From: a virus
Lineage: Duplodnaviria > Heunggongvirae > Uroviricota > Caudoviricetes
Length of the DNA: 35,939 nt
Direction: 5' to 3' (one strand)
IMG/VR virus record: IMGVR_UViG_2627853983_000005
Under the pieces are notes generated by a model, which ran no database searches, was not told where the DNA came from, and saw only the letters and a list, made by a program, of their open reading frames with translations. The translations under genes were made by a program, and so were the position numbers. Position 1 is the first letter of the stretch. Each line of letters begins with the position of its first letter. Shown here in pieces: positions 1-31,178 of this stretch.

Positions 1-2
1 AG

Positions 3-28
3 TTCTCGTAAACCGAGGTTTTAAATAA
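3..28. promoter_or_regulatory. gix/cix/hix-like invertase crossover site (left)
   Basis: TTCTCGTAAACC-GA-GGTTTTAAATAA: two 12-bp inverted half-sites around a 2-bp core, resembling recalled gix; bases 1-19 are the reverse complement of 35921-35939. Confidence 0.6.
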
Positions 29-82
29 TGGCCGTTTCTGGCCTGCATGGCATGATTTGCGCTTTTGGACGGGAGATTCAGT

Positions 83-682
83 GTGCTGATTGGCTATGTA
101 AGGGTATCAACAAATGACCAGAATACAGACCTGCAACGAAACGCTCTTGTTTGTGCAGGATGTGAACAAATATTTGAAGATAAATTAAGCGGGACAAAGA
201 CAGACCGACCGGGATTAAAACGCGCTTTAAAGCGCCTTCAAAAAGGTGACACGCTGGTTGTCTGGAAACTGGATCGCCTCGGGCGAAGCATGAAACATCT
301 GATTTCTCTCGTCGGGGAACTACGGGAGCGAGGGATTAATTTTCGCAGTCTGACCGACAGCATAGACACATCTTCTCCAATGGGGCGTTTTTTCTTCCAC
401 GTGATGGGTGCCCTGGCTGAAATGGAACGTGAATTAATTGTTGAACGTACACTGGCCGGGCTGGCGGCAGCGCGCGCAAGGGGGCGCACAGGCGGACGTC
501 GACCGAAGCTGACAAAAGAACAGCATGAGCAAATAGCAAGGCTAATCAAAAACGGGCACGACAGAAAACAACTGGCAATAATTTACGGCATTGGCACATC
601 GACGATTTATCGTTATCACCCTGTAGGCGATATACAGACTGAAGAAACAACCGGGCAGACTCAGGAAAATGAAAACCGCTAA
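83..682 (+). CDS. Serine DNA invertase, Gin/Pin/Cin/Hin family
   Basis: Translation from GTG at 83 reads MLIGYVRVSTNDQNTDLQRNAL..., with resolvase catalytic Ser motif and C-terminal HTH; closest to recalled e14 Pin. ORF track extends to a TTG at 65. Confidence 0.9.
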   Translation: MLIGYVRVSTNDQNTDLQRNALVCAGCEQIFEDKLSGTKTDRPGLKRALKRLQKGDTLVVWKLDRLGRSMKHLISLVGELRERGINFRSLTDSIDTSSPMGRFFFHVMGALAEMERELIVERTLAGLAAARARGRTGGRRPKLTKEQHEQIARLIKNGHDRKQLAIIYGIGTSTIYRYHPVGDIQTEETTGQTQENENR

Positions 683-703
683 TCTGACCATTAGCGGTTT
701 TTG
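672..703. terminator. Bidirectional rho-independent terminator between convergent invertase and U
   Basis: Perfect 12-bp stem AAAACCGCTAAT / ATTAGCGGTTTT with 6-nt loop, flanked by A/T runs. Confidence 0.6.
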
Positions 704-710
704 TGTTAAA

Positions 711-1205
711 TCAGAACAGCCCTTTAACTGAACTGGCCGCGCTGTTAAGAGATGATGTCACCTTATCTTTGAAGCCGGACAGCATATCACTGAACGATGA
801 GGATTGCAGGCGCTCCCGCAAATCCTCATCACAGCGTTCAAGAGTCAGTGAAAATTCTATCTTTTTCGCCTTACCGTAGCGATCAAACTCGGAGCGGGTC
901 GTATTCGTTTCAGTCAGGACATACATGCCGTAAATCTGCCCGACGCCATCAATCAAAGGCCAGGGTCGTCCTGTATACGCCTGCGTGGTCAGCAGCGACA
1001 GCGACACTTCGCCACCTGTAATTTCAGGATAAAGCACACCAGAAAGAACGATGCGATCATCACCTGCACCGATATACTGCCAGCTTGCTGAACGGTTAAC
1101 GCGTTCATTTTTCACATGCCGCCAGCTTTTGTTTTGCTGTAACTGCTGATGCGGCAGCGTGCGCAGCTCAAAAACAAACATGCCGTAGATCATCATCATG
1201 GCCAT
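711..1205 (-). CDS. U: Tail protein gpU
   Basis: 164 aa, directly downstream of tape measure gene in tail operon; size and position match P2 U. Confidence 0.75.
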   Translation of the reverse strand: MAMMMIYGMFVFELRTLPHQQLQQNKSWRHVKNERVNRSASWQYIGAGDDRIVLSGVLYPEITGGEVSLSLLTTQAYTGRPWPLIDGVGQIYGMYVLTETNTTRSEFDRYGKAKKIEFSLTLERCDEDLRERLQSSSFSDMLSGFKDKVTSSLNSAASSVKGLF

Positions 1206-1211
1206 GACTCC

Positions 1212-4055
1212 TCAATCTTTATCGTAAAAACTGCCACGCCCGGCACGGGCGCGCCGTTCCATTTCTGCCCTGACCATTTCACCGACCAGTTTCGCCAGTT
1301 CGCGGGGATTCTGCGTAACAACGTTATGCAGATGAACATGAATTTCACCACCAAATCCGGAGGCAACAGGCTCCCGGTTACGGGAAGTTACAGGAACTGA
1401 TGCCACTGGAGATCGTATAGCCTCCGCCACCGGGCGGGAGCTGGCCGCAACAACAGGGACCAGCGCCGGAGGCAGCGGAGCCGGGACCACGGGTGTGATA
1501 TTAATTGCGGGGGCAGGCTTACTGACCTGCGCAATCTTCCGCTCCTGCCACTCCCCACGAACAGCAAGTGCTCGGGGCAGGTTTTTAAAGACAATATCGC
1601 CGGGGCCAATGCGTTTTTTCGTCTCCTCAACCAGCTTACCTGTGTTATCAGCAATTTTGCTGAGTCTGCGCAGCGTACCGGTATTGCTGTCTGTGAGCGG
1701 TTTATTGTCTTTGGGGTTATCACCTCCGGTGCCATTGCCATTTTCCACAGGCTTCGGCGGATTGATTTTCGCCAGGTCCCCCTGAAGCAAGGCAACCTTG
1801 TCCTGAAGAATGGCCGCACGCTGTGCGTCTTCGATTTTCTTGCGCGCCCTTTCCGCTTCATCCGGAAGCACACCAAGCTTTTCAAGTATCCACGCCAGCG
1901 TATCCAGCAACATTTTTGCAGGTGTCAGAACAAGTTGTAACGCACCGCCAAGAACGTTACCGAATATCTCGCCAGCACTGGTACATTTATCCAGAGTTTC
2001 CTTGCTGGACTCCATCGGAGACAGCAGCGATTTAAACCAGTTAAACACCTGGCTGATCCCACTCCCGATTGCGTCAAAAACAGGACCAAACCGTTCAAAG
2101 GTTTCGCGCAACGGGGTCAGCCTTTCCATAATCCCGCTGAACACCCCGGCAAAAAATGCCCTGATGGGATCCCAGTATTTCCAGATGAGAACGGCAGCTC
2201 CGGCAAGCGCAGCCACGATAAGGCCGACCGGACTGAACAACGCCCCGATAGCGCCCCCCAGTAACGAAACGGAACCCGTCACCATTCCCCATAGTGCTGG
2301 CAGGAGTCTGACAGCATTCATTGAACCGGTCAGGAGGGAAAAGCCAAGACGCAGTTTTGCCAGCGGGCCAGCAAGCACACCAATAGCCAGCGACAACGAG
2401 CCAACCGTTGCAGTCATTGCCAGCAACGCACCGCCTGCTATCAGTAGCTGGCGCGTCAGTACCGGATGGGCCTGCGCCAGCGAGGTGATTTTTTCAAGCA
2501 CCCGCGTGAGCCACTGCGTGACAGAACGCAGCGGACCGTCAACCAGATCACTGATGCGAATACGAAGACCTTCCCATGCGCTGTCGAGATTTTTCAGGTC
2601 CCCATCAAGATTATCGGCCATTACTTTTGCAACGCGATCGGCCTCTCCCCTTGCCCCCTGCAATTCTCTGGTCAGTTTTTGCAGCTCTCCTGAACCAGCC
2701 GCCGCAACAAGCGTCTGCAAACCAACGAACGCCTCTTCTCCGGCGATGTCCTTGAAGAAGGAAACCTGGTCCACCTGTCCGTATTTTTGTGTCGCCTTAT
2801 AGAGATCAAGCAGCACATCCTCCATCGGGCGCATTTTGCCTCTGGCGTCAGCAACTGACACCCCCAGCTCTTTCAGCGCATCAGCCGCAGCTTTTGGCGG
2901 TGATGCAAGGCGGGACAGACTTGCGCGCATGGCCGTACCAGCATCGCTTCCACGAAGACCATTATTGGCAAGCATCCCGGCCATGGCTGCCGCTTCTTCA
3001 AGACTGATACCAAGTTTTGCGGCAACCGGACCGGTATACTTCATGGTTTCGCCCAGCGCGCGTAAATCAGTATTGGTCCGGGTGAATGCCGCTGTCAGCG
3101 TATCGCCAACCCGGTCCATTTGATCGGCTGTCAGGTTGAACTGTGTGAGGATATTGGAGCCTATATCAGCCGTCTCGCCGAGTTCGACGCCACCTGCCAG
3201 CGCCATATTAAGAACACCGGGCAATGCGGCCTGAATGGCCTGCGGAGTAAAACCAGCCATTGCCAGAAAGCTCTGCCCACTGGCGGCATCACTCGCAGTA
3301 AACTGTGTTTCAGAGCCAAGTTTTAACGCCTGCTCACGCAGCGCCTTAAACTGCGGGCTGTTTTTGTCGATTCGCGTCAGCGCCTGAACGCGGGACATCT
3401 CTTTGCCGAACCCGATCGCGGGCTGCAAAAAACGCCCGGCAGCATAGCCGCCCGCCGCTGCCGCACCAATTGCCAGCGCACCACCTGTTTTCAGTTTTCC
3501 CGCGGTTTCCTGCGCGCGCGAATACCGCTCACGAGCCTGCGTTACACGCGCAAGCGCCTGCCGTTCGCGTTCAAGCTGGTTGTTGTATTGTTCGGTGCGT
3601 CTGATGGCCTGCTGGATGGTGTTATCGCTGCCTGTCAGGGAAATGCCGTGGCGTTTCAGTTCTCCGCCAAGCTCCCGCATTTTCTGAATTTCCCGTGTGC
3701 GCGATTCATTCAGGCGTTCAAGCCGGGTGCTTAACTGCTGCATCAGCTTTTGTTGTTTTTCGCTGAGCACTGTACCCGTGCGTTGTAACTGATTAAGGGC
3801 GTTAAGCTGGCGTCGTGCTTTCACGATACCCGCATCCGCTTTACTGACAGCGTCGCGGGCGCGCTCAAATGAACGCGCCTGACGCTCGAGATTTTTGATC
3901 GCCCCCTGCGTTCGCTGAATGGAGTCACCAAACTGCCCCATCAGGCGGCGGGCGTTTTCGGCAGGCCGGGTCAGCCTGTCAACGGCGCTGAAAGCGACCC
4001 GGATGTCAAGAGTCTTCATTATCTGCATTCCCGCTGCGAAGTGCCGCCCGCTCAC
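1212..4055 (-). CDS. T: Tail tape measure protein gpT
   Basis: 947-aa ORF, coiled-coil N-terminal half, Gly/Ala-rich hydrophobic central segment, follows E/E'. True start may be an internal Met near 4019-4028. Confidence 0.85.
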   Translation of the reverse strand: MSGRHFAAGMQIMKTLDIRVAFSAVDRLTRPAENARRLMGQFGDSIQRTQGAIKNLERQARSFERARDAVSKADAGIVKARRQLNALNQLQRTGTVLSEKQQKLMQQLSTRLERLNESRTREIQKMRELGGELKRHGISLTGSDNTIQQAIRRTEQYNNQLERERQALARVTQARERYSRAQETAGKLKTGGALAIGAAAAGGYAAGRFLQPAIGFGKEMSRVQALTRIDKNSPQFKALREQALKLGSETQFTASDAASGQSFLAMAGFTPQAIQAALPGVLNMALAGGVELGETADIGSNILTQFNLTADQMDRVGDTLTAAFTRTNTDLRALGETMKYTGPVAAKLGISLEEAAAMAGMLANNGLRGSDAGTAMRASLSRLASPPKAAADALKELGVSVADARGKMRPMEDVLLDLYKATQKYGQVDQVSFFKDIAGEEAFVGLQTLVAAAGSGELQKLTRELQGARGEADRVAKVMADNLDGDLKNLDSAWEGLRIRISDLVDGPLRSVTQWLTRVLEKITSLAQAHPVLTRQLLIAGGALLAMTATVGSLSLAIGVLAGPLAKLRLGFSLLTGSMNAVRLLPALWGMVTGSVSLLGGAIGALFSPVGLIVAALAGAAVLIWKYWDPIRAFFAGVFSGIMERLTPLRETFERFGPVFDAIGSGISQVFNWFKSLLSPMESSKETLDKCTSAGEIFGNVLGGALQLVLTPAKMLLDTLAWILEKLGVLPDEAERARKKIEDAQRAAILQDKVALLQGDLAKINPPKPVENGNGTGGDNPKDNKPLTDSNTGTLRRLSKIADNTGKLVEETKKRIGPGDIVFKNLPRALAVRGEWQERKIAQVSKPAPAINITPVVPAPLPPALVPVVAASSRPVAEAIRSPVASVPVTSRNREPVASGFGGEIHVHLHNVVTQNPRELAKLVGEMVRAEMERRARAGRGSFYDKD

Positions 4056-4274
4056 GCCAGCTAACCACTTCGCCGGGCGTCATCATGAAGATTTCGGCGG
4101 GCGACCAGTTGAAAATGGCGGCAATATCCGCCACCAGATCTTCGATGTGCTCAAAGCACACCAGGGTGATTACGCTGCCGTCTCCTGCACGCTCTTCGCG
4201 CCAGAGTCTGGCTCGCTCATAAAATTTACAGCCACAGCGCACAACTGAATAAAATCGCGTGACGACATTTTTTT
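4006..4274 (-). CDS. E' extension reached by programmed -1 frameshift (gpE+E' product)
   Basis: A AAA AAA run at 4268-4274 (minus strand) near E codon 91; the -1 frame is open from there to the stop at 4006. Confidence 0.5.
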
Positions 4275-4544
4275 AATCATCACTTCATCCAGTCGTGGCG
4301 AGGTCACGCGAGGCAACAGCGTGAACATGGTATCCGCTTTCAGATTCAGCACATCAGACAGCGACAGACCACGCAGGGATCCCGCCTGCTCAATAGCCCC
4401 GGTGATCTCCACATATGTGATTTTTTCGGCACCACGCTCAATTGGCCGGGAAAGTTTTACACCACGTTCGACAGCCATATCCTCACCTGACGTCACATCA
4501 TCCGCTACGGTGTTATTCCGGGTTTCAGTATCGATATCTTTCAT
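4170..4544 (-). CDS. E: Tail assembly chaperone gpE
   Basis: ORF starting MKDIDTETRNN between tail tube and tape measure genes; contains A7 slippery run near codon 91. Confidence 0.7.
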   Translation of the reverse strand: MKDIDTETRNNTVADDVTSGEDMAVERGVKLSRPIERGAEKITYVEITGAIEQAGSLRGLSLSDVLNLKADTMFTLLPRVTSPRLDEVMIKKMSSRDFIQLCAVAVNFMSEPDSGAKSVQETAA

Positions 4545-4599
4545 CAGTTGTCTCCTTTTCAGTCAGAGGCGACGCACTGCGCCGCCTGCATATTACTTA

Positions 4600-5112
4600 T
4601 CAGCCAAGCCCAAGCGCGGAACGAATGCGGTCAGGCACAATGTCCTTGCCGTCCTTCCGGTAGATGTGGTTCAACAGGTCGATTTCCCACAGCGGGCGAT
4701 CGTTAACGCTCAGCTTGTAGTAGGTGTTTTTGACAGCGTAAGTGTGTGATGTGGCTTCGCCCTGTTTGGCCTCCCCCATATCAATTTCCGTCACACGCCC
4801 GCGCATCTCGATTTCATACAGATCGCTTTCTGCATCGGTGTAATATTCACCCGCAAAACGCAGCAGCGTGCCGTCAATCGTGCCGCCATACTTAAGGAAC
4901 AGTGCACGAACAGCTCCCCCCATGACAAAGCTCGCATCAAGCGCGGAGTCGTCCAGACCGAGATCAATACTTACTGCTCCCATCATGCCACCACCACGAT
5001 AGCTGTCGGTTTTGCGCGTCAGTTTGGGCGGCGTGACGGATGTCACTTTACCCACTTCGTTTTCACCATCCACAAACAACGTAAAAAAGCGAAGATGTTT
5101 TGGTACAGCCAT
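4600..5112 (-). CDS. FII: Tail tube protein FII
   Basis: 170 aa, immediately downstream of sheath gene; size and position as P2 FII. Confidence 0.85.
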   Translation of the reverse strand: MAVPKHLRFFTLFVDGENEVGKVTSVTPPKLTRKTDSYRGGGMMGAVSIDLGLDDSALDASFVMGGAVRALFLKYGGTIDGTLLRFAGEYYTDAESDLYEIEMRGRVTEIDMGEAKQGEATSHTYAVKNTYYKLSVNDRPLWEIDLLNHIYRKDGKDIVPDRIRSALGLG

Positions 5113-6296
5113 CAGGCACCTCCCAGCACCGCAAATGCGGGACCAAAGAATTCATCAGTAAACGTCTGGTAAAGCTCCATGTCTTCCAGCGGGGGAACGG
5201 GCGTATATTTGTAGCGAATACGCACACGCCCCTGACGTAAATCCGTGGTGCCGTTATCCACCACGTCATACCAGCACTCCGCGCCAATCAGTTTCCCGGC
5301 AGTAACCAGCGAATCCAATTTTGCCCTGATGGCACTGATAACATCCTTCACGTTCGCAGGCGTCAGTGGACTGTCGATGGTTTCAAACTGCGCTTCCGCA
5401 ATTGAATCAGCCAGCACCTGTGCGGTTCGGGTATACACCTCAAAGATGTAGGCGTTCGTTTCCGGTGTGCGGTTGCCCCAGAAGCGGAACCCGTTACGAC
5501 GAATAATGGTCGTGATTTCTTTGTTGTTGAGGCTGTTGGCATCACTGTCTTCGGCCTGTAACGACCAGAACACATGCCTCGACATCCCCAGCACATTTTT
5601 AACCGGAACGTTGGACAGCGATTTGTGCCAGCCCTGCTCATGGTCAATGTACGCACGAAGGCCGCACGCATAAGCAGGCGCGGGGAACGTTTCGTTTTTG
5701 CCACTTTTCGGGTTGTAGGCGATGAAGTCAGGCCATAAGAGCATCACCTCACGTTCGTTGAATTTCTGGCGGTAGGTAATCGCCTCAGCCATCGTGTTAC
5801 AACCATGACATGTGGCATACACAAACGCGCGCAGTTTACCCGCAATCACGCACAGGGATTTTGTCACCGCCTCCGTGTCCAGCTCCGGCGCGGCCAGAAT
5901 ACGCGGACGGTATCCGATGCTTTCATCCTGCTCTGCAACAAGCAGCGCATACATCCCCGTATAGCTGCCGTCAGATTCAGAACCACCGATAACCAGTTGA
6001 TCCTGCGTCCTACCGCCTTCTTCTTTGTGTTCAGCCACGCGAACGACGATCACTTTTGTGCTCACCTGGTCTGCGATAGCCTTAAGCGCACGATAAAGCG
6101 TCCCCGTAGTCCCGCATTTTCCCAGCACGTCATTGACGCGGGTCAGCAGTGTGGGCTTGTTCAGCGGGAACAGCTCCGCATCCGCATCATCCGCCGTTGC
6201 CACGATACCGATAACGCTGGAATCAACATCATTAATCGCTGTTACCAGGTCGGTACTTTCCGTGACACGGGCACCATGAAAACGAGTTTCACTCAT
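5112..6296 (-). CDS. FI: Contractile tail sheath protein FI
   Basis: 394 aa with conserved sheath motifs (KLRAF, AYRQ, EQGWHK, LIRRNGFRFWGNRT, TPVPPLE) recalled from P2 FI. Confidence 0.9.
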   Translation of the reverse strand: MSETRFHGARVTESTDLVTAINDVDSSVIGIVATADDADAELFPLNKPTLLTRVNDVLGKCGTTGTLYRALKAIADQVSTKVIVVRVAEHKEEGGRTQDQLVIGGSESDGSYTGMYALLVAEQDESIGYRPRILAAPELDTEAVTKSLCVIAGKLRAFVYATCHGCNTMAEAITYRQKFNEREVMLLWPDFIAYNPKSGKNETFPAPAYACGLRAYIDHEQGWHKSLSNVPVKNVLGMSRHVFWSLQAEDSDANSLNNKEITTIIRRNGFRFWGNRTPETNAYIFEVYTRTAQVLADSIAEAQFETIDSPLTPANVKDVISAIRAKLDSLVTAGKLIGAECWYDVVDNGTTDLRQGRVRIRYKYTPVPPLEDMELYQTFTDEFFGPAFAVLGGA

Positions 6297-6453
6297 AGCT
6301 TCAGCCCCTTGTATCCGTTAAATGATTCGGCAACAATCATCACCCACCACGCGCGTAATCTCACCCCTGCGCCGTTCTCCCGCCACGGCGACAACAAAAA
6401 GCAGTAACCCCCTCCGCACGCACATGCGACCATGCCGCACAGGGAGGGAGCAG

Positions 6454-7563
6454 ATGACCGACACCACCATGCAATTGCTCAGTCAGGGCACAGACCCCGT
6501 GAAAATGCCGGATTTTGATATTCTCGCGGAGGGTAAAACGCTGTCAGGCGTGGCAGAGCGCCTGATGAGCCTGTCACTGACCGACAACCGGGGATTTGAG
6601 GCGGACCAGCTCACCATCACGCTGGATGATGCGGATGGTCAGTTGCAGCTACCGCCACGGGGCGCGCGCCTGACGGTTCTCATTGGCTGGAAAGGAGAAC
6701 CGCTGACAGAAAAAGGCACTTACATTGTTGATGAAATCGCTCACGAAGGACCGCCGGACAGGCTGACTGTTTCAGCCAGAAGCGCAGATTTTCGGGATGA
6801 ATTTAACGTTAAACGTGAGGTGTCCTGGCATGATGTGACCGTTGAGCGTGTGGTATCCGCCATCGCTCATCGGTATGGTCTGAAACCGCAAATCAGCGAA
6901 ATGCTGATGGATATCGAAATCGACCACGCCGACCAGACCGAAGAAAGCGACATGTCCTTCCTTACGCGCATGGCGGAAATGCTGGGCGCAATCACCACGG
7001 TAAAAAGCGGTAATCTGTTATTCATCATGCCCGGCGGTGGCGTGAACGCACAGGGCCAGCCGTTGCCATCGTTTGCCATCACACGCAGCAGCGGCGATCG
7101 CCATCAGTTCCGCATTGCTGACCGCGAAGCGTATACGGGGGTACGCGCTTACTGGCTTGATCTTAATTACGGGAAAAAGAAAAAAGTCAGCGTGAAACGC
7201 CGTAAACCGCCAAAACCCAAAAAGGAGAAAAGCAGCAGCCGCGAAGGTGATTATATGGAAGGCGCGGAAGGCAATGTGTTTGTGTTACGCAAGACTTATC
7301 AGAACGAGCAGGCAGCAAGACGCGCAGCGGCGGCAAAGTGGCAGCAACTACAACGCGGAGCCGCATCATTCTCCATCACGCTGGCGCGTGGACGTGCAGA
7401 ACTCTACCCCGAAATGCATGGCACGGTAACAGGATTTAAAAGCGAGATTGATAATCAGGACTGGATCATTGCAAAAGCCGAGCACACCATTGATAACAGC
7501 GGTTTTACCACGCAGCTTGAGCTTGAGGCAAAAATCCCGGAATGGATAGCGGAAACAGAGTGA
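6454..7563 (+). CDS. D: Tail/baseplate hub protein gpD (gp27/VgrG-like)
   Basis: ATG at 6454 with GGAGGGAG RBS; 369 aa; immediately upstream of ogr as in P2. ORF track start 6322 lacks an RBS. Confidence 0.85.
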   Translation: MTDTTMQLLSQGTDPVKMPDFDILAEGKTLSGVAERLMSLSLTDNRGFEADQLTITLDDADGQLQLPPRGARLTVLIGWKGEPLTEKGTYIVDEIAHEGPPDRLTVSARSADFRDEFNVKREVSWHDVTVERVVSAIAHRYGLKPQISEMLMDIEIDHADQTEESDMSFLTRMAEMLGAITTVKSGNLLFIMPGGGVNAQGQPLPSFAITRSSGDRHQFRIADREAYTGVRAYWLDLNYGKKKKVSVKRRKPPKPKKEKSSSREGDYMEGAEGNVFVLRKTYQNEQAARRAAAAKWQQLQRGAASFSITLARGRAELYPEMHGTVTGFKSEIDNQDWIIAKAEHTIDNSGFTTQLELEAKIPEWIAETE

Positions 7564-7603
7564 GCAACTTAGAATAGGCAGCACCACGTTAAGGGAGGTC
7601 GCT

Positions 7604-7864
7604 ATGTTCCGTTGTCCGCTTTGTGGCGCATCTGCCCGTATCCGCACCAGTCGTCCGGAAAATGATTCAAACACCGTGCGGCAAAAGTATTACCAGTGTA
7701 ACAATCTGGAATGCGGCGTATGCTTCTCAACACTGGAAGCTTTCCATAAATTCACATCAAAACACGCCTCCGGCGTTCACTCTTCAGAAGGTATCCCGTG
7801 GCATGATCTGCCAGCTTCACACAGGGGAAACAATCAGATGAGTTTGCCTTTATCTCAGAATTAA
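7604..7864 (+). CDS. ogr: Late gene transcriptional activator, Ogr/Delta zinc-finger family
   Basis: MFRCPLCGASARIRTS...YYQCNNLECGVCF: C-x2-C ... C-x4-C zinc finger; position after D as in P2. Confidence 0.85.
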   Translation: MFRCPLCGASARIRTSRPENDSNTVRQKYYQCNNLECGVCFSTLEAFHKFTSKHASGVHSSEGIPWHDLPASHRGNNQMSLPLSQN

Positions 7865-7952
7865 CAGGCAGAATTGCCGGAGTAACAAAAAAGCGATAGA
7901 TTACGTGCGGGTGCCTTTCGGCTGATGGTCGGAGGGAATACCCGAAGGCCAG

Positions 7953-8138
7953 ATGTGGAAAGGCCCCGAGTCAACTTTAACGTTAACCCGAGGCCCTAAC
8001 CATCTACCCTCAGCAAGTGATAGGTTAGCGCCTCCCCGAAAAAGGAGCAAGCGCTATGTCGCAAAAATCGCTTACGGCCATCACATTCTGCGTGACGGCA
8101 ATCCTCATCATCTGGATGCTGCACGGTTCGCTGTGTGA
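7953..8138 (+). CDS. mok-like overlapping reading frame of hok locus (tentative)
   Basis: 61-codon ORF starting upstream of and overlapping hok in another frame, as mok does in hok/sok loci. Confidence 0.3.
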   Translation: MWKGPESTLTLTRGPNHLPSASDRLAPPRKRSKRYVAKIAYGHHILRDGNPHHLDAARFAV

Positions 8139-8196
8139 AATACGGATGAGTTTCTGGGGAGCGGAGTTTGCGGCGTTCTTACAGTGTAAGCAGTAA
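8056..8196 (+). CDS. hok: Hok/Gef-family type I toxin (small membrane peptide)
   Basis: 46 aa MSQKSLTAITFCVTAILIIWMLHGSLCEIRMSFWGAEFAAFLQCKQ: N-terminal TM helix, SLCEIR and AAF motifs of Hok/Gef; AAGGAG RBS 8 nt upstream; below ORF-track size cut-off. Confidence 0.75.
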   Translation: MSQKSLTAITFCVTAILIIWMLHGSLCEIRMSFWGAEFAAFLQCKQ

Positions 8197-8289
8197 GGAA
8201 ACCGCGACGGGGAAGGCAACTTCCCCGTCAATCGGTTGCCAGGGTAAAGGTCGAAAAGGCACCCTATTTCCAGTTGACGTGAACAACAA

Positions 8290-8322
8290 GCCCGCAGCGT
8301 AAAAACTGCGGGTTTTCTTTTT
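8290..8322 (+). terminator. Rho-independent terminator ending hok/ogr transcript
   Basis: Stem GCCCGCAG/CTGCGGGT with 8-nt loop followed by TTTCTTTTT. Confidence 0.6.
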
Positions 8323-8356
8323 GGTTCCCTCACTCATGAGGACACCAAAAAACAAA

Positions 8357-8385
8357 GCCCACAGCATAGAAGCTGTGGGCTTTTT
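8357..8385. terminator. Second hairpin terminator, bidirectional
   Basis: 9-bp stem GCCCACAGC/GCTGTGGGC followed by TTTTT; A-run on the other side. Confidence 0.55.
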
Positions 8386-8395
8386 GCATTCAAAG

Positions 8396-8590
8396 ATGGA
8401 CGTTATATGGACACTTAAAAATAAAATCCATTTATTTTCAAATGATTAAACCTCTACTTAAAGCGCCCGCAGGCGCTTTAACGTTTCTTGCCCCTCCTGA
8501 TGATTTACTTATTTTTCAACGAATAAGCCAAAACAGGGGGAACAAATTAACACAAATTATAACTAATCGATGGACAGTTTATGGACACTT
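8396..8590. other. Putative attP region with Int arm-type direct repeats
   Basis: ATGGACGTTATATGGACACTT (8396-8416) and ATGGACAGTTTATGGACACTT (8570-8590) flank an AT-rich stretch and a GCGCC hairpin (8460-8479); lies at int 3' end where P2 attP sits. Confidence 0.4.
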
Positions 8591-17544: not shown

Positions 17545-18504
17545 ATGAAAATTTGTATCGACGACGGCTCCACCAACATCAAGCTGGCATGGACTGAGAA
17601 TGGCGAACGCCGCAACGCCATCAGCCCGAACAGCTTCAAGTCGGAATGGTCTGCGCCGTTCGGTGGCATGCAGCCCGCGAACTACATGCTTGATGGCGTG
17701 CGCTATGGTTTTGATCCGGTTAGCGATCGCTTTGTCCAGACGACCGACACGCAATACCAGTACAGCGATGTGAATGTAATCGCCATTCATCACGCGCTGG
17801 TCAAATCAGGCATCACGCCACAGGAGGTGGATGTGGTTGTCACCCTGCCACTGAGCGAGTATTTCGACACAAACGCACAGCCGGACATGGCCAACATCAA
17901 CCGCAAAAAAGCGAACGTTATGCGCCCGGTGGAATACCAGAACGGCGAAGCATTCACTATCCGTAACGTGCGGGTTATGCCTGAATCCATTCCGGCTGGC
18001 TTTAAAGCACTGGCTGACATGAGTCCGTTTGAATCCCTGCTGATTGTGGATTTAGGCGGAACCACGCTGGATGTGGCAAAGGTTCAAGGGCAACTGGCAG
18101 GTATCAGCCAGGTGTTTTGCGATCCACACGTAGGCGTTTCCCTGATGGCCGATGCCGTACTGTCGGTGATGGCCACTAACGGTATGCGCACCAGTCACCA
18201 CATCGCCAATACCATTATCGAACATCGCCATGATGAAGCCTGGCTGCGCCAGCACATCCACAATGACGCGCATTACGCCAGCCTGATGGCGGTTATTCGT
18301 GAAAAGGAAGAAACACTGAAACAACGCGTGATCCGCGCGCTGGCGGTTTTTTCGGGTTACGGGCGGGTGATGGTTGTCGGTGGAGGGGCGGAGATTGTGG
18401 CACCCGCTATCCGCGAAGTCTGCGGAGTTAATGCGACTTTCATCGCGGACGGGGTGCCACAGTTTGCTCTGGTTAATGGGCTGTACGCAATGGACAAGGA
18501 GTAA
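17545..18504 (+). CDS. parM: Actin-like segregation ATPase, ParM/StbA family
   Basis: N-terminus MKICIDDGSTNIKLAW...ISPNSFKSEW...YQYSDVNVIAIHHAL matches recalled R1 ParM/StbA phosphate-binding motifs; 319 aa. Confidence 0.9.
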   Translation: MKICIDDGSTNIKLAWTENGERRNAISPNSFKSEWSAPFGGMQPANYMLDGVRYGFDPVSDRFVQTTDTQYQYSDVNVIAIHHALVKSGITPQEVDVVVTLPLSEYFDTNAQPDMANINRKKANVMRPVEYQNGEAFTIRNVRVMPESIPAGFKALADMSPFESLLIVDLGGTTLDVAKVQGQLAGISQVFCDPHVGVSLMADAVLSVMATNGMRTSHHIANTIIEHRHDEAWLRQHIHNDAHYASLMAVIREKEETLKQRVIRALAVFSGYGRVMVVGGGAEIVAPAIREVCGVNATFIADGVPQFALVNGLYAMDKE

Positions 18505-18508
18505 ACCA

Positions 18509-18823
18509 ATGACGACACCAACCAGACGGATAAGTTTCTATCTGAAGCCCGCCGCCGTCAAGAGTGAACAGGAGGCGTGCAATTACCTCGATAGCCTGCC
18601 AGCCTCCGAACGCAGCCGCGCGCAACGCGCGGCCTTTCTGGCTGGGCTAGCGCTCATAAAGCGCAACCCAGCATTTGCCTACTGGATGGCCGAATGGCCA
18701 GAGGACAACCTCCCCTTCAATACCGTTAGCATCAAGGAAACATACCAGGATAATCAGCCTAGCGGAGTTGAATGCAATTTTTATAAAATAAAAAAGAATA
18801 TTCAGACCTTATTCCCAGAATAA
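18509..18823 (+). CDS. parR: ParR/StbB-like centromere-binding adaptor
   Basis: AAGGAG RBS; RRISFYLKP...LDSLPASERSRAQRAAFLAGLALIK resembles recalled R1 ParR ribbon-helix-helix N-terminus; directly downstream of parM. Confidence 0.8.
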   Translation: MTTPTRRISFYLKPAAVKSEQEACNYLDSLPASERSRAQRAAFLAGLALIKRNPAFAYWMAEWPEDNLPFNTVSIKETYQDNQPSGVECNFYKIKKNIQTLFPE

Positions 18824-18906
18824 TCTGATAATTGTATGTGAACTAATAAAATACAGACCAACACATCATTCTGGCACCCTTGCTAACAGGGTGCCAATGT
18901 TTCAAA

Positions 18907-19749
18907 TCATGATGAAATTGCCGAAGTTTTTTTATCGTGCTGAAGTACCGCAAATGCCATTAAAACCTCAAGAGAATAGCGGCGATAATACTTAACAAAA
19001 CCATAATAAAATACTCGGGATGCAGCAATACAAAACAAGAGAAGAAAACAAAAAGGTAACAGTCTGATATTTATATCTATTAAAAAGGATAGAAGGAGCA
19101 GGAACATAAGCAACCAGACTGAAGCGAGAAAAACAAATGTAATGTTTCTACAAAAACCATACAAAGCAACATAGTTTTGCATTTTCACCTGATGATTTTT
19201 AGAATGTTCATACACATAATGATAAGCAAGGCGAAAAAGATCGCCCCTCAAGCCCTTACGTCGATATAGCGTAGATACAGAAAAAACATTTATATAACCA
19301 TCTCGTATTTGCGGCCAAAAGACTTTAATAAGTATAGAATGCAGTGTGGTTTTATGATGTTCTGCTTTATCAAAAGCTGATACAGGAAATAAAAAAACTC
19401 CACGAATAAAATTAACTATACTGAACTTAGTATTATGTCGTTTTATTTTCAGGGAGCTTCTTTTAGAAAACAGATAAATTGAAGGATACCCAAGTTTACT
19501 GTTCATGTATTTTTCAATTAAACAGGATGATAGAATAGATATGAAGTGACCTGAAATATATGATAGAACGATTAATACCACATATATAAATACACTTATT
19601 ATTTCTTTATATTTCAGGATATGGTTAAGAATACCTTCTATATAAACAGGGTTAATTTCAATAGAAAACAAAAAAAGGATAAACAGGAATAACCCACCTG
19701 GAATTAGATAGCCCAAAAAGTCATAAAATGAAAACGGATTCTGTGTCAC
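18907..19749 (-). CDS. Hypothetical integral membrane protein (2 N-terminal and 2 C-terminal TM helices), second gene of AT-rich cassette
   Basis: 280 aa; GTG start with CAGGGGGAAG RBS; very low GC; hydrophobic segments at both ends with a soluble middle. Confidence 0.6.
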   Translation of the reverse strand: MTQNPFSFYDFLGYLIPGGLFLFILFLFSIEINPVYIEGILNHILKYKEIISVFIYVVLIVLSYISGHFISILSSCLIEKYMNSKLGYPSIYLFSKRSSLKIKRHNTKFSIVNFIRGVFLFPVSAFDKAEHHKTTLHSILIKVFWPQIRDGYINVFSVSTLYRRKGLRGDLFRLAYHYVYEHSKNHQVKMQNYVALYGFCRNITFVFLASVWLLMFLLLLSFLIDINIRLLPFCFLLLFCIAASRVFYYGFVKYYRRYSLEVLMAFAVLQHDKKTSAISS

Positions 19750-19788
19750 ACTTCCCCCTGTGTTACTTGTAAATTAAAGGGTAAAACA

Positions 19789-20286
19789 TTATTTGTTTTT
19801 CCGTAAAGGATTAGCTTTCCATCTTCTTACTAACCATTCGAATTCTTGATATGTAGTATCCGAATTAATGCTTTCTCTGATTGCTTTAATTAATGGCTCG
19901 GCAATATCATATGTCTCTACAACTGTTGTGTAAGATGTTCTTTTTATCATTTTTTCATCATAAATACCTTCACGAATACTTACAGCAACTCGCTCGTAAA
20001 AATTTAAAATATATTGAAATTTTCGACGCTCGGCCATTTCTTCATCTGTTATTATGCAACCATCACAAGGAAAAACATAAGAACGAAATGATTTGCCTGA
20101 ACGATGCACTTGTTTCAGGGTATGCAATGACTCTATATATTGCATATCTTGCCGACTCTCAAAAAGAAAGTTGGCCGTTTGAGTTTTTTTTGCGGTACGC
20201 ACATTGTAGATAATGGTTCCAATGGCAACCAAAACGCCAAGCAGAACAATAGCATTGCTGATGATTTGTAGTGTTATTGGGTTCAT
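19789..20286 (-). CDS. Hypothetical single-pass membrane protein, first gene of AT-rich cassette
   Basis: 165 aa; N-terminal TM helix MNPITLQIISNAIVLLGVLVAIGTIIY then soluble domain; weak RBS. Confidence 0.6.
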   Translation of the reverse strand: MNPITLQIISNAIVLLGVLVAIGTIIYNVRTAKKTQTANFLFESRQDMQYIESLHTLKQVHRSGKSFRSYVFPCDGCIITDEEMAERRKFQYILNFYERVAVSIREGIYDEKMIKRTSYTTVVETYDIAEPLIKAIRESINSDTTYQEFEWLVRRWKANPLRKNK

Positions 20287-20299
20287 CCTATTTCATCCA

Positions 20300-20326
20300 T
20301 AAAAAAGGCGGGGAGCAAATCCCCGC
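20300..20326 (-). terminator. Rho-independent terminator/attenuator just upstream of AT-rich cassette
   Basis: On minus strand: stem GGCGGGGA/TCCCCGCC, 5-nt loop, then T6 run; ends 14 nt before cassette start codon. Confidence 0.55.
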
Positions 20327-21009
20327 CTCATTAGAGGTCAACGTAGCTTAGAAACCATCAAATTCATCATACATTTTTTTCATATCAACCCCCTCATAGA
20401 AATCATAACCACGTTTTGTGGTTTTTGTGACGTATAAACTACATCAAAGGCAAGCCACGGTCAAATATATAGGCATGCTTACCTGCACAAAAGTGCACAA
20501 ATTTGCACAATTTTTTTGAACGACTTTTTACCCTTCCGGCCCGCATGGCGGCTGGATCCGTCAAGGATCCGTGCGTGCACAAAAAAACGCGCTTTTTCTG
20601 CGCGCAGGTGACGGGGGAACAGCCCGCGTTTCAGGGGGTAAATAGCATTCCCTGAACGATGTCGCAGAGACACAACAGAATGGCCATATTTCTCACGCTG
20701 AGCATGAAAAAGGCGTGAGGGCTTTTGATTTGATGGGGTGAAAGGTAAGGCCGTCAAAATCGCACTGAGGCAGCGAGAACATGCAGTCAACGCGGTGGAA
20801 TTGCGTAAGAGTCTGACCGTCGATGGTGGCGATAAACTGGAAGGCGTCGTGAAATTATCTGATTGATACAGGAGCTGGAGAGCCGGGGCATAAATTTTTT
20901 ATGCCCCGGCGAAGCAGCAGACAAGCGAAGCGCGTCAGCGATACGGCACCTTGCCGACCATACTTCATAAGTGCAAAATACGAGCAAAGAAATCAATGGA
21001 GGCTGTCTT

Positions 21010-24346: not shown

Positions 24347-24500
24347 TGCTCCCCCTGAGTAATTACAGGAAGATTACCCGCGCGCGAAACTGTTCTCCTT
24401 AACCCTCTGTTCTGACTGTTTTCTTACAACAAAAGCCCTTTGTATCAGCCTGTTACGCTTTGCCATCATGACTGAAGAACCAGTCAGAGGGGCAAAAACT

Positions 24501-29162: not shown

Positions 29163-29304
29163 CCCACCCACATGGGGAAACCTCGGAATATGGGGCGACC
29201 GCCTTCTGGATGCACTGGAAACCTGTAACGCGGATAAACGGGCCATTGCTGAACTGGATAAGAGAATAGCCGAACTGACACACCAGACGGGAGTAACACA
29301 ATGA
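29023..29304 (+). CDS. o-spanin lipoprotein (Rz1/LysC-like)
   Basis: Lipobox LLTGC after signal peptide; Pro-rich; embedded in +1 frame of i-spanin. Confidence 0.6.
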   Translation: MNAPTLCLTLVLLTGCAGTQNAPGPAPSVRLIPQTLTMPVTPPPFPDPPTWGNLGIWGDRLLDALETCNADKRAIAELDKRIAELTHQTGVTQ

Positions 29305-31178
29305 CCAGTAAGAACTTTGCACTGATTACAGCCATGACACAGGCTGAACTGACTCAAAAGGTGAATGAACATCTTGCGAAAGGGTGGCATCTTCAGGGGG
29401 AGACGCGGGTTGCCTACGAACCCGGCACCCCGTGGTATCTAATGCAGGCAATGGTGGCCGATGGCACTACAGACATCTCACCTGATTCCCCCCAGCACGG
29501 CAGCGTGCCGGAGTGGTATTACGTGGTGGTACTTGCTGGTCAATCCAATGCCATGTCATATGGTGAGGGAATGCCGCTGCCGGATTCTTACGATGCGCCC
29601 CACCCACGCATTAAGCAACTGGCCCGTCGCAACACAGTGACTCCCGGTGGTAAAGCATGCGCATTTAACGACATCATTCCGGCAGACCACTGCCTGCATG
29701 ATGTTCAGGATATGAGCGCACTGAATCACCCGAATGCAGACCTGAGCAAAGGGCAGTATGGCTGTGTCGGACAGGGCTTGCATATTGCCAAACGCCTGTT
29801 GCCTTACATTCCACAGAATGCCGGGATTTTACTGGTTCCATGCTGTCGTGGTGGTTCGGCATTCACCCAGGGCGCGGAGGGGACATTCAGCGAGTCCACA
29901 GGAGCCAGTCAGGATTCGGCTCGCTGGGGTGTGGGTAAACCTTTATATCAGGACCTGATTTTGCGCACGAAGGCCGCATTGCAGAAAAACCCAAAAAACA
30001 TGCTGCTGGCCGTATGCTGGATGCAGGGCGAATTTGACATGAGCGCCGCTACGTACTCACAGCAACCTCCGCTGTTTACGGCCATGCTGAAACAGTTTCG
30101 TGCGGACATTACCGAGTTTAACACGCAGTGTCATGGAGGCAGAGCGGCAAGTGTGCCATGGATTTGTGGTGACACGACGTATTACTGGAAAAACACCTAC
30201 GGCACGCAGTACGACACCATTTACGGGGCGTACAAAAACAGGGAGAGCGACAACGTTTTCTTTGTGCCGTTCCTGACCGATGGTAGTGGCAACAATACCT
30301 CCACCAACGCACCAACGGAAGATCCGGATGCTGCAAGTGAGGGATATTACGGTTCGGCATCCCGAACGAACAAAAACTGGGTATCATCAAATCGCCAGAC
30401 GCATTTCAGCTCATGGGCGCGTCGTGGCATTATTCCCGATCGTATGGCAACCGCTATTCTGAACGTAGCCGGTCGCACCTTAGCCTTCATCAGTGGTAAG
30501 GCACCGGAAATCAAACCCTCGCCCGGCGGCGACACGCCATCGGGGCCGTCTGAAGATGCATCCGTACGCACAATCTCCCTGTTGCCGACAGCCGGAGATG
30601 CTGCTGCGCAGGGCTGGAGCATTAAGAATGGCGGAATTCAGTTGTCAGAGGGTGTATTTAAGATCACCAAGCAGAGCAATAAAGCCTGGTCCCTGACGCG
30701 CCCGGTGGATGACGCAGTCTCCCTGCTGACACGGGGTGGCAGACTGAGCTGTAAGTTTCGACTGTCAGGCGCACTGACCAACAATCAGTTCGGTCTGGGA
30801 ATTTATCTGTATACCGATGTAGCGTTACCTGACGTCGTGGCGATGACCGGGACTGGTAACCCGTTCCTGATGTCGTTCTTCACCCAGACCACAGACGGCA
30901 AACTGAATCTGATGCATCACAAGAAAGCAGGAAACACAAAGTTGGGCGAGTTCGGGAATTACAGTAACGACTGGCAGACGCTGGAGCTGGTGTTCACCGC
31001 CGGCAGTGCCACGGTTACTCCGAAACTGAATGGAGTGGCTGGCCCGGCATTCCAGGTCATAAAAGACAGTCTGACACTGGGGCTGAATGCGCTGACGTTA
31101 ACTGATATCACTAAAAATGCCGCGTACGGCGTCGATATCGGCAGCCTGGTGCTGGAAATCAATAATCCCGCAGCATAA
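29301..31178 (+). CDS. NanS-like sialate 9-O-acetylesterase moron (N-terminal DUF1737-like, SASA/SGNH esterase core, C-terminal domain of unknown function)
   Basis: VVVLAGQSNAMSYGEG, HPRIKQLAR, CCRGGSAF, WMQGEFD motifs as recalled for E. coli NanS and prophage NanS-p; 625 aa; inserted between spanins and R. Confidence 0.7.
   Translation: MTSKNFALITAMTQAELTQKVNEHLAKGWHLQGETRVAYEPGTPWYLMQAMVADGTTDISPDSPQHGSVPEWYYVVVLAGQSNAMSYGEGMPLPDSYDAPHPRIKQLARRNTVTPGGKACAFNDIIPADHCLHDVQDMSALNHPNADLSKGQYGCVGQGLHIAKRLLPYIPQNAGILLVPCCRGGSAFTQGAEGTFSESTGASQDSARWGVGKPLYQDLILRTKAALQKNPKNMLLAVCWMQGEFDMSAATYSQQPPLFTAMLKQFRADITEFNTQCHGGRAASVPWICGDTTYYWKNTYGTQYDTIYGAYKNRESDNVFFVPFLTDGSGNNTSTNAPTEDPDAASEGYYGSASRTNKNWVSSNRQTHFSSWARRGIIPDRMATAILNVAGRTLAFISGKAPEIKPSPGGDTPSGPSEDASVRTISLLPTAGDAAAQGWSIKNGGIQLSEGVFKITKQSNKAWSLTRPVDDAVSLLTRGGRLSCKFRLSGALTNNQFGLGIYLYTDVALPDVVAMTGTGNPFLMSFFTQTTDGKLNLMHHKKAGNTKLGEFGNYSNDWQTLELVFTAGSATVTPKLNGVAGPAFQVIKDSLTLGLNALTLTDITKNAAYGVDIGSLVLEINNPAA

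Follow-up and report, generated by a model that had tools for sequence, protein, structure and literature searches.

Gene organization of the tail region

The window, by which we mean the whole 35,939 bp stretch of DNA that was analysed, is by its sequence that of a P88-like phage (genus Xuanwuvirus) within the P2-like phages (Peduoviridae). When we combined Pfam and tblastn searches, all seven tail genes of the P2 F operon (FI, FII, E, E', T, U and D) were found to be present, in the internal order of P2. The genes from FI to U are on the minus strand and encode the tail sheath gpFI (5112-6296; three Pfam sheath domains, 46% identity to P2 FI), the tail tube gpFII (4600-5112; Pfam Phage_tube 2.1e-45, 42% identity to P2 FII), the tail assembly chaperone gpE (4170-4544; 35% identity to P2 E, with an uncertain start codon, the P2 alignment running from 4478), the tape measure gpT (1212-4055; Pfam PhageMin_Tail 1.6e-56, 34% identity to P2 T) and the tail protein gpU (711-1205; Pfam Phage_P2_GpU 5.5e-39, 46% identity to P2 U). 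A further minus-strand frame of the GpE family, E' (4006-4242; Pfam Phage_P2_GpE 2.1e-12), overlaps the ends of E and T in what appears to be the manner of the E/E' chaperone pair of P2, and in relatives it carries its own annotation as a GpE-family tail protein. On the plus strand are the baseplate hub gene gpD (6454-7563; Pfam Phage_GPD 4.2e-17, 48% identity to P2 D) and an Ogr/Delta zinc-finger late activator gene (7604-7864; Pfam Ogr_Delta 5e-14, 42% identity to P2 Ogr). This assignment of strands is the one made in the initial annotation, and the ORF list, Pfam and tblastn with P2 proteins concur on it.

The longest ORF for D starts at 6322. We place the real start at 6454 because a ribosome-binding site (GGGAGGGAG) is found upstream of it, because the P88 annotation has an equal FI-D gap of 157 bp, and because the interval 6322-6453 holds conserved promoter elements. 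The gap between FI and D is indeed 157 bp long (6297-6453), as had been reported. The other virion genes (O, N, M, L, X, R, S, V, W, J, I and H) are on the plus strand, while Q and P, as in P2, lie on the opposite (minus) strand, and the tail-fibre gene H runs up to the window's final base.

In P2, FI-FII-E-T-U-D-ogr are co-directional, and relative to this order the block is inverted, as was originally proposed; D is neither co-directional with U nor directly 3' of it. The locus shares with the P2 F operon (promoter PF) its genes and their internal order, a protein identity of 34-48%, an Ogr homologue and a putative activator dyad upstream of FI, at what would be the P2 distance. In contrast to P2, D and ogr are separated from the operon and run in the opposite direction; U and D no longer overlap, D is preceded by a ribosome-binding site and a putative promoter of its own, and U ends at a predicted terminator shared with an invertase gene.

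This gene (65-682, plus strand; Pfam Resolvase 1.5e-50 and HTH_7) encodes a serine DNA invertase of the Gin/Pin/Hin family and shows 93-97% nucleotide identity to gin of Mu and D108. In the interval where the invertase and U genes converge, a terminator scan detected a hairpin (672-701) with an A-run on its left and a T-run on its right, likely a bidirectional intrinsic terminator, at which the far end of the block would meet the invertase tail to tail. It folds with -17.1 kcal/mol on the plus strand and -15.7 kcal/mol on the minus strand (z = -4.8 and -4.9), and 0 of 200 shuffles folded as well. A Gin/Hin-type crossover site (TTCTCGTAAACCGAGGTTTTAAATAA), whose match coincides with a 'G-segment boundary' annotation of Mu, is located at 3-28 and bounds the invertible tail-fibre segment on its right, while a second site, its reverse complement, lies inside H at the end of the window (35912-35937). 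The block therefore adjoins both an invertase and a genuine crossover site, as the initial annotation stated. The two sites at the ends of the window bound the tail-fibre segment, as in the Mu G segment/Gin and Salmonella Hin systems, with an invertase gene 93-97% identical to gin of Mu and D108; what those systems flip, however, is a tail-fibre segment, absent from the window, and not the FI-U block.

Predicted late promoters between FI and D

The divergent control region between FI and D (6297-6453) has a similar length in, and could be aligned across, 47 distinct relatives. It contains a putative Ogr-type activator dyad, TCT-N12-ACA (6376-6393, centre 6384.5), found at the same aligned position in all 47 distinct intergenic regions and kept while its flanks diverge; the variants among them are two with CCT and two palindromic TCTC-N10-GAGA forms. 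Phylogenetic footprinting showed that more distant relatives have TGT-N12-ACA at this position and that TCT-N12-ACA belongs to the sub-branch of the window, and a strict search for TGT-N12-ACA returned no site in the FI/D gap. For the longer motif GTTCT-N12-ACAAC we counted three occurrences in the window (about 0.07 expected), of which two fall within divergent late control regions, the window having just these two. The second such region, between the head genes P and O, has a TCT-N12-ACA dyad at 24411-24428, and GTTCT-N12-ACAACAAAA is common to it and the FI/D site.

On either side of the FI/D dyad we found a candidate -10 element. The leftward (FI) late promoter would use the minus-strand hexamer GATGAT (6336-6341; conserved A-T-x-x-T columns), with a predicted start at about 6329, and the rightward (D) late promoter would use the extended -10-like TGcGACCAT on the plus strand (6425-6433; conserved 'CGCGCGCG.G.....AT' block), with a predicted start at about 6440. 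The last base of the FI-side hexamer is 48.5 bp from the dyad centre, the same distance being found for the D-side hexamer in most relatives, and the FI ATG is 88.5 bp away from the dyad, the -10-like hexamer having the expected spacing. The strand of the left element is ambiguous, because, read on the plus strand, it also makes a good rightward -10, which in many relatives resembles TATAAT. The rule that a start lies at the dyad centre +/- 55.5, which was calibrated on P2, matches the four annotated P2 late starts to 1-3 nt.

This organization is similar to that of the P2 PP/PO region, where one dyad also stands midway between divergent units, with -10-like ends 48.5 bp from its centre, and where the annotated starts (3016 and 3127) are 111 bp apart, the predicted starts in the window being about 111 bp apart as well. 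It differs in that the FI/D site is predicted to control FI and D, which are tail and not head genes, and in that its left half-site is TCT and not TGT. Since a dyad with -10-like elements 48.5 bp to each side has the PP/PO geometry, the FI/D gap is probably a bidirectional late promoter that drives D as well as FI. The FI-to-U and D-ogr units would be transcribed divergently from the 157-bp gap, the single Ogr-type dyad lying exactly midway between the two -10-like elements in what would be a copy of the one-site design of PP/PO, and Ogr bound to this dyad would switch on both the FI promoter and the D promoter. The initial annotation had anticipated that D would need a late promoter of its own, and one appears to be present, as predicted from the conserved dyad and the -10-like element.

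The -10-like hexamers are weak, with 3-4 of 6 positions, and the gap gave no promoter in a generic sigma-70 consensus scan, a method that says little about activator-dependent promoters. Both observations are expected for activator-dependent promoters, yet they bring no positive support. The half-site TCT of the window dyad, where TGT is canonical, counts against the promoter model.

Distribution of the inverted order

Phages P88, P884B11, phiSM, PhiR44_2 and Chuche align with 91-99% of window positions 1-8400 at 92-96% nucleotide identity, each in a single collinear place, while 500465-2 and 520873 align over 97% of the same interval at 94.7-96.1% identity in two to three joined pieces. The annotated gene tables of P88 and phiSM agree with the window gene for gene, from the tail fibres (and the invertase) through U-T-E-FII-FI on the opposite strand to D-ogr. 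The order invertase (+), U-T-E'-E-FII-FI (-), D-ogr (+), like the 157-bp spacing of FI and D, is common to P88 and the Xuanwuvirus phages P884B11, 500465-2, 520873 and Citrobacter phage phiSM; these relatives differ from the window in cargo only, some of them being without the invertase. Klebsiella phage ST16-OXA48phi5.4, of another genus (Reipivirus), has the same inverted block and divergent FI/D with a D about 70% identical, but it is without the invertase and carries DUF262 and other cargo between its tail fibre genes and U. Any impression that the block is unusual for this genome was thus not borne out, its orientation being that of the reference genomes P88, P884B11, phiSM and Reipivirus; reference P2-like genomes with the same orientation do exist, in the P88-like lineage.

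When we searched more broadly, FI (-) and D (+) were found in 80 of 80 IMG/VR loci, a scan with D whose relatives are 99-100% identical only and which therefore checks for orientation polymorphism and not diversity. The inverted order is present in roughly one in four complete E. coli genomes. With the FI/D junction as query, 1,357 of the 1,382 matching records from complete E. coli genomes were collinear over at least 80% of the query, and those sampled from the remainder were truncations and not flips. No genome of the inverted-type lineage was found with the opposite orientation, either among the 80 IMG/VR loci or among the E. coli junction records sampled.

A graded sample was obtained by a one-genome-per-species scan with an alignment of the window and P2, which gave 80 loci, all from Enterobacterales except one (L087) labelled Vagococcus, probably a contamination. 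All 48 species-representative loci in which D is 61-99% identical to that of the window, from more than 20 genera of Enterobacterales, are inverted, whereas the 32 with a D of 54% identity or less all have the order of P2, so that FI-U orientation splits the sample 48 to 32 with zero exceptions. Phages of Burkholderia, Ralstonia, Pseudomonas and Mannheimia have the P2 order. Across the genomes compared, FI-to-U opposite to D is the fixed, inherited order of the whole P88-like branch and not the product of a recent flip. Literature searches on Xuanwuvirus, phage P88 and inversion in P2-like phages or Peduoviridae gave no explicit description of the inverted block; what they returned was limited to switching of the tail-fibre segment in P88-like prophages.

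Origin of the inverted block

A past inversion, which the initial annotation had put forward, is the right kind of explanation, since the co-directional order is widespread and hence ancestral. Indeed, U and D are neighbours on one strand in 384 of 510 phage records, including phages of Burkholderia, Ralstonia, Pseudomonas, Mannheimia and Microcystis, and we therefore consider the P2 order to be ancestral. The inverted type groups as an exclusive clade in the neighbour-joining trees of both D (46/46) and FI (47/47), which points to one ancient inversion that is now fixed, although 'single event' rests on distance trees, midpoint rooting and a sample of 80 loci. Over 48 loci, FI and D identities co-vary (r = 0.95).

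The sequences at the junction bear on where the break occurred. In P2-type relatives U and D overlap by 1-4 nt, and the inversion must therefore have cut a coupled junction. The C-terminus of U is similar in both types, a Ser/Ala-rich tail ending in G-L-F or G-L-L, which rules out a breakpoint inside U and places the break downstream of it.

Taken together, it is highly probable that a P88-like ancestor inverted the F promoter with FI-U once, and that the result is fixed and not switchable, with a shared dyad that probably drives FI and D. The segment inverted in this ancestor would have comprised the F late promoter and FI-FII-E/E'-T-U, turned in a single inversion with one break just upstream of the activator site of the F promoter and the other in the tight U/D junction. 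The arrangement would then have become fixed, to be inherited today by a large prophage clade across Enterobacterales.

The reverse polarity, with the divergent order ancestral and the co-directional order of P2 derived, draws on the fact that midpoint rooting by itself cannot polarise the change, but we regard it as very unlikely: the co-directional U-D records come from hosts among the Beta- and Gammaproteobacteria and from more distant phages, the divergent order is confined to phages whose D is at least 61% identical to that of the window, and the tight U/D overlap of the P2 type is typical of a long-standing operon.

It is equally improbable that the FI-to-U module was taken from another phage lineage and inserted in reverse, replacing the resident genes, in place of an inversion in situ. 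P2-like phages are mosaic, and a mosaic boundary does exist at about 705, many E. coli relatives aligning only from 705 on and having other genes upstream. However, FI, FII, E, T and U are 34-46% identical to their P2 counterparts, compared with 48% for D and 41-46% for V, W and N (and 26-74% for the window's virion proteins outside FI-to-U), and a block that is as P2-like as the other virion proteins argues against a foreign module. The tight FI-D correlation given above, the bipartition shared by the FI and D trees, and an inner gene order and promoter-proximal dyad exactly as in the P2 F operon are likewise at odds with replacement.

The neighbouring invertase suggests another scenario, in which the block is a second invertible segment flipped, now or recently, by the Gin-family enzyme through the 3-28 site and a site near 6300-6450. 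The invertase gene and a genuine crossover site do lie directly beside the block, and one IMG/VR locus (L060) is rearranged otherwise, the invertase being present twice and T being split, from which we conclude that recombination does occur around the block genes. Against this, the boundaries of the block show no crossover-like sequence, the best matches scoring 14-15/24, within the chance range, while the sites at 3-28 and 35912-35937, the only ones in the window to do so, score 24/24; a search for inverted repeats flanking the block was also negative. On both points the initial annotation was correct. An inversion between 3-28 and about 6300 would also flip the invertase, yet the invertase is on the plus strand like D, and the IMG/VR and E. 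coli surveys described above revealed no orientation variants (0 of 80 loci in the former). The link to the invertase that had been suggested likewise fails in the graded sample: 43 of the 48 inverted-type loci are without an invertase match beside the block and only five have one beside U, whereas some P2-type loci (such as L133, L150 and L164) do have an invertase at that place. In E. coli relatives where an acetyltransferase-like gene (annotated 'transferase') replaces the invertase, the block is still inverted. This scenario is thus largely refuted and has a very small probability; the FI-U block is not switchable and has no demonstrable link to the adjoining tail-fibre invertase.

Finally, mis-orientation of the block at contig building is refuted, for although both ends of the window coincide precisely with inverted crossover sites and the invertible tail-fibre segment is lacking, so that assembly must have broken at this repeat, several closed E. 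coli chromosomes are 100% identical over 1-8400 in the same order, which also recurs in over 1,300 complete genomes and in phages isolated independently.

Possible consequences for late gene control and classification

If the single ancestral inversion is accepted, we lean somewhat towards a further reading, in which it put the symmetric Ogr site of PF beside D and so created, in a single step, a second bidirectional Ogr-dependent promoter after the pattern of PP/PO, making D and ogr a separate unit. This rewiring would be a derived character of a deep, unnamed branch of Peduoviridae comprising Xuanwuvirus, Reipivirus and many prophages of Xenorhabdus, Photorhabdus, Providencia, Morganella, Yersinia and plant-associated Enterobacterales. 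Our literature searches found no paper describing rewired late control or an inversion-marked branch. A symmetric activator site may let an operon be cut and inverted with the detached gene keeping its regulated expression. The orientation of FI-U tells the P88/Reipivirus branch cleanly apart from the P2 type, which is useful for annotation and for synteny-based classification. The locus also calls for caution, in that an adjoining invertase need not be the cause of a nearby inversion. The current understanding of P2-like phages is unchanged.

Accessory genes

The cargo of the window includes genes of its own when compared with P88 and its Xuanwuvirus relatives. Among the cargo ORFs, Csx27 was the sole PADLOC match, and it was too weak (1e-5) to be trusted. 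A gene for a 625-amino-acid SASA-type esterase separates R from the lysis genes, and near 19-20 kb the low-GC insert is a different one.

Gene organization of the block

Genes were identified from an ORF map, a Pfam scan and tblastn searches with all P2 proteins, and by its gene content the window appears to be a complete P2-like phage genome. Next to a plus-strand serine invertase (65-682) lie, all on the minus strand, gpU (711-1205), the tape measure T (1212-4055), the E' frame (4006-4242, with a GpE Pfam match), E (4170-4544), the tube FII (4600-5112) and the sheath FI (5112-6296); D (6454-7563) and ogr (7604-7864) are on the plus strand. Beyond ogr follow a hok/gef-like region, int and C (minus), the early genes and those for replication, then Q and P on the minus strand and O to H on the plus strand. 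The block is as delimited and described in the initial annotation, including a D start at 6454. We rejected the start of the longest D ORF (6322) because a GGGAGGGAG ribosome-binding site precedes 6454, because the resulting FI/D gap of 157 bp is that of the P88 annotation, and because conserved non-coding elements occupy 6322-6453.

The convergent invertase and U genes meet at a hairpin with a 12-bp stem (672-701) and an A-run and a T-run on either side, which is likely a bidirectional terminator (-17.1 kcal/mol on the plus and -15.7 kcal/mol on the minus strand; z about -4.9; no shuffle folds as well). Many E. coli relatives align with the window only from 705 onward, which makes this position a mosaic boundary.

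Distribution and polarity of the inverted arrangement

The first 8.4 kb form a single collinear alignment, at 92-96% identity, with Escherichia phage P88, Xuanwuvirus P884B11, Citrobacter phage phiSM and other isolates, and the annotation tables of P88-like relatives give an identical orientation gene by gene. Positions 1-8400 occur at 100% identity in several closed E. coli chromosomes, and at least 80% of them are found in one place in 1,107 of 5,426 complete E. coli genomes. FI is on the minus and D on the plus strand in all 80 IMG/VR relatives. A query spanning the FI/D junction only (5850-6900) matched 1,382 records, 1,357 of them collinear across at least 80% of its length; the sampled remainder were truncations, for example by IS elements, and not flips. 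The recurrence of this order in isolates, closed chromosomes and junction matches excludes an assembly artefact, and its uniformity in the IMG/VR relatives and junction matches excludes ongoing switching of the block. The inverted FI-to-U block is real and not unusual for the P88-like lineage. In P88-like prophages, switching has been reported for the tail-fibre segment only (10.1101/2022.05.07.487787).

One genome per bacterial species was then scanned with an alignment of the window and P2 D proteins, and tail genes were mapped at each of the 80 loci returned. Wherever D is 61-99% identical to that of the window (48 of 48 loci), U-T-E-FII-FI is on the strand opposite D-ogr, whereas all 32 loci with a D at most 54% identical have the co-directional P2 order (FI-FII-E-E'-T-U-D-ogr), without exception. 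Inverted loci come from Salmonella, Trabulsiella, Symbiopectobacterium, Edwardsiella, Serratia, Erwinia, Enterobacter, Pantoea, Kosakonia, Citrobacter, Pectobacterium, Brenneria, Klebsiella, Xenorhabdus, Photorhabdus, Providencia, Morganella, Hafnia, Yersinia and others, and form an exclusive clade in neighbour-joining trees of both D (46/46) and FI (47/47). Klebsiella phage ST16-OXA48phi5.4, from a second ICTV genus (Reipivirus), has the same layout as the window. One P88-type prophage, with a D 98% identical to that of the window, lies in a 226-kb contig labelled Vagococcus sp. WN89Y (L087, NZ_JBQPOM010000071.1); in a Gram-positive host, contamination or a mislabelled assembly seems likely.

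A fused U+D protein, searched against 50,697 phage records, matched 510, of which 384 have U and D adjacent on one strand, Burkholderia, Ralstonia, Pseudomonas, Mannheimia, Aeromonas and Microcystis phages included. Among the matches listed, D alone with U elsewhere occurred only in the P88/Reipivirus group (D about 65-100% identical). On this distribution, the co-directional order is the ancestral state, from which the divergent order of one branch is derived. Reference P2-like genomes with the window's orientation exist in that branch (P88, P884B11, phiSM and Reipivirus).

The arrangement is plain in reference genomes deposited since 2014. In the literature on Xuanwuvirus, phage P88, and inversion or opposite orientation in P2-like phages or Peduoviridae, we found neither the inverted block nor a D promoter explicitly described, and the P88 paper (PMC5285337) and the phiSM paper (PMC6456863) are both silent on the block.

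Origin of the inversion

The past large inversion proposed initially was right in kind, but its proposed connection with the invertase is not supported; the event is ancient, fixed and lineage-defining. By tblastn, the proteins of the block (FI, FII, E, T and U) share 34-46% identity with those of P2, the same range as D (48%), V, W and N (41-46%) and Q and P (45-47%), and FI and D identities co-vary across loci (r = 0.95). We therefore favour inversion in place over acquisition of a foreign tail module. In relatives with the P2 order, the U stop and D start overlap by 1-4 nt, in agreement with the P2 annotation, so the inversion would have cut a translationally coupled junction. The Ser/Ala-rich C-terminal tail of U is of the same kind in both arrangements, which places the break downstream of U. 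Sub-branches differ in the first 12-18 residues of D, which cannot be aligned.

The invertase is homologous to Gin (93-97% identical in DNA to the gin genes of Mu and D108), with a genuine crossover site beside it (3-28) and a partner in inverted orientation inside the tail-fibre gene H (35912-35937). The window ends are thus the two ends of a tail-fibre invertible segment that is itself absent, the contig evidently having been broken at the switching repeat (1-28 and 35912-35939). Gene H runs off the window end; the missing segment, about 2-3 kb in P88, holds alternative fibre tips and assembly genes.

As initially noted, the block boundaries lack such sites: at 683-710 and 6297-6453 the best crossover-like match was 14-15 of 24, a score reached by dozens of random positions, and a search for inverted repeats flanking the block found none. 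An invertase match lies beside U in only 5 of the 48 inverted loci, loci with the P2 order such as L133, L150 and L164 carry one between tail fibres and FI, and the block is still inverted in E. coli relatives where a transferase gene replaces the invertase. As far as any trace remains, this marks the invertase as cargo, carried at a variable site, and speaks against its having caused the inversion.

One IMG/VR relative (L060, IMGVR_UViG_2654587728_000014) has, within 1-6700, two copies of the invertase, inverted relative to each other and separated by about 2.5 kb, and a split T gene, with its C-terminal part and U on one strand and its N-terminal part on the other; either a rearrangement of its own took place near the invertase or two prophages lie side by side.

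Predicted late promoters in the FI/D gap

When we aligned the FI/D gap (6297-6453) of 47 distinct inverted loci, the flanks had diverged and four elements were conserved: A-T-x-x-T (6336-6340), TCACG (near 6361), a dyad T(G/C)T-N12-ACA(AC) (6376-6393) and a CGCGCGCG(T/A)G...AT block (6413-6433). The left half of the dyad is TCT in the window's sub-branch, TGT in those of Xenorhabdus, Photorhabdus, Hafnia and Salmonella, and CCT in two loci (L100 and L144). In two Providencia loci (L113 and L121) it is replaced by a perfect palindrome, GTTCTC-N8-GAGAAC (TCTC-N10-GAGA; TCT-N12-AGA), which suggests a changed Ogr specificity there.

Since the annotated Ogr/Delta activator sites of P2 contain TGT-N12-(A/C)CA cores, we infer that the dyad is a putative site of this family. 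Calibrated on P2, the rule that transcripts start 55.5 bp either side of the dyad centre falls within 1-3 nt of the annotated starts of PP (3016), PO (3127), PF (17626-17628) and PV (10308); in P2, the divergent PP and PO share a single site placed exactly midway between them. The window's dyad is centred on 6384.5, and 48.5 bp from it end a -10-like GATGAT on the left (6336-6341, minus) and an extended -10-like TGcGACCAT on the right (6425-6433, plus), a spacing found again in most relatives. FI is predicted to start near 6329, 33 nt before its ATG, and D near 6440, 14 nt before its ATG and just ahead of the ribosome-binding site, about 111 bp apart as for PP and PO. Both hexamers are weak, the left element also makes a good plus-strand -10 for rightward transcription, and a generic promoter scan of the gap found no promoter.

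The inversion would have brought the symmetric activator site of PF next to D; a suitably spaced -10-like element would then have been all that D still required. The need of D for its own late promoter, raised initially, thus has a plausible putative answer from motif geometry, and a bidirectional Ogr site serving both FI and D is a reasonable model that can be tested.

The extended motif of the FI/D dyad, GTTCT-N12-ACAACAAAA, recurs with comparable geometry in the phage's own P/O control region (24409-24434). The window contains three copies of GTTCT-N12-ACAAC where about 0.07 would be expected; the third (about 1934-1955, minus) lies within the tape measure gene, on its coding strand, and could be an internal late promoter upstream of U or a chance occurrence. 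The predicted PO start (~24475) would lie inside the longest ORF of the scaffold gene O (from 24468); alignment to P2, the gene length annotated in P88 and a ribosome-binding site GAGGGG all favour an ATG at 24501.

Accessory regions

Between ogr and the integrase, the hok/gef-family toxin region (7953-8400), with several terminator-like hairpins at 8205-8383, also matches Stx-converting phages at ~85% identity. As in P88, replication gene A is followed by a ParM/StbA actin-like plasmid segregation protein (17545-18504, plus) and a small partner ORF, unusual equipment for an integrating P2-like phage. A low-GC island (~18500-20500; 31-39% against about 54%), which takes the place of the tin/old cargo of P2, may be a module for defence or exclusion; of its two minus-strand ORFs, 18907-19749 (280 aa) gave no Pfam match and a single weak PADLOC match to Csx27, and 19789-20286 encodes DUF4760. 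Between the lysis genes and R, where P88 has no gene, 29301-31178 (plus) encodes a protein of 625 aa that combines DUF1737, a SASA (sialate O-acetylesterase-type) domain and DUF6645 and resembles the NanS-p esterases of Stx prophages.
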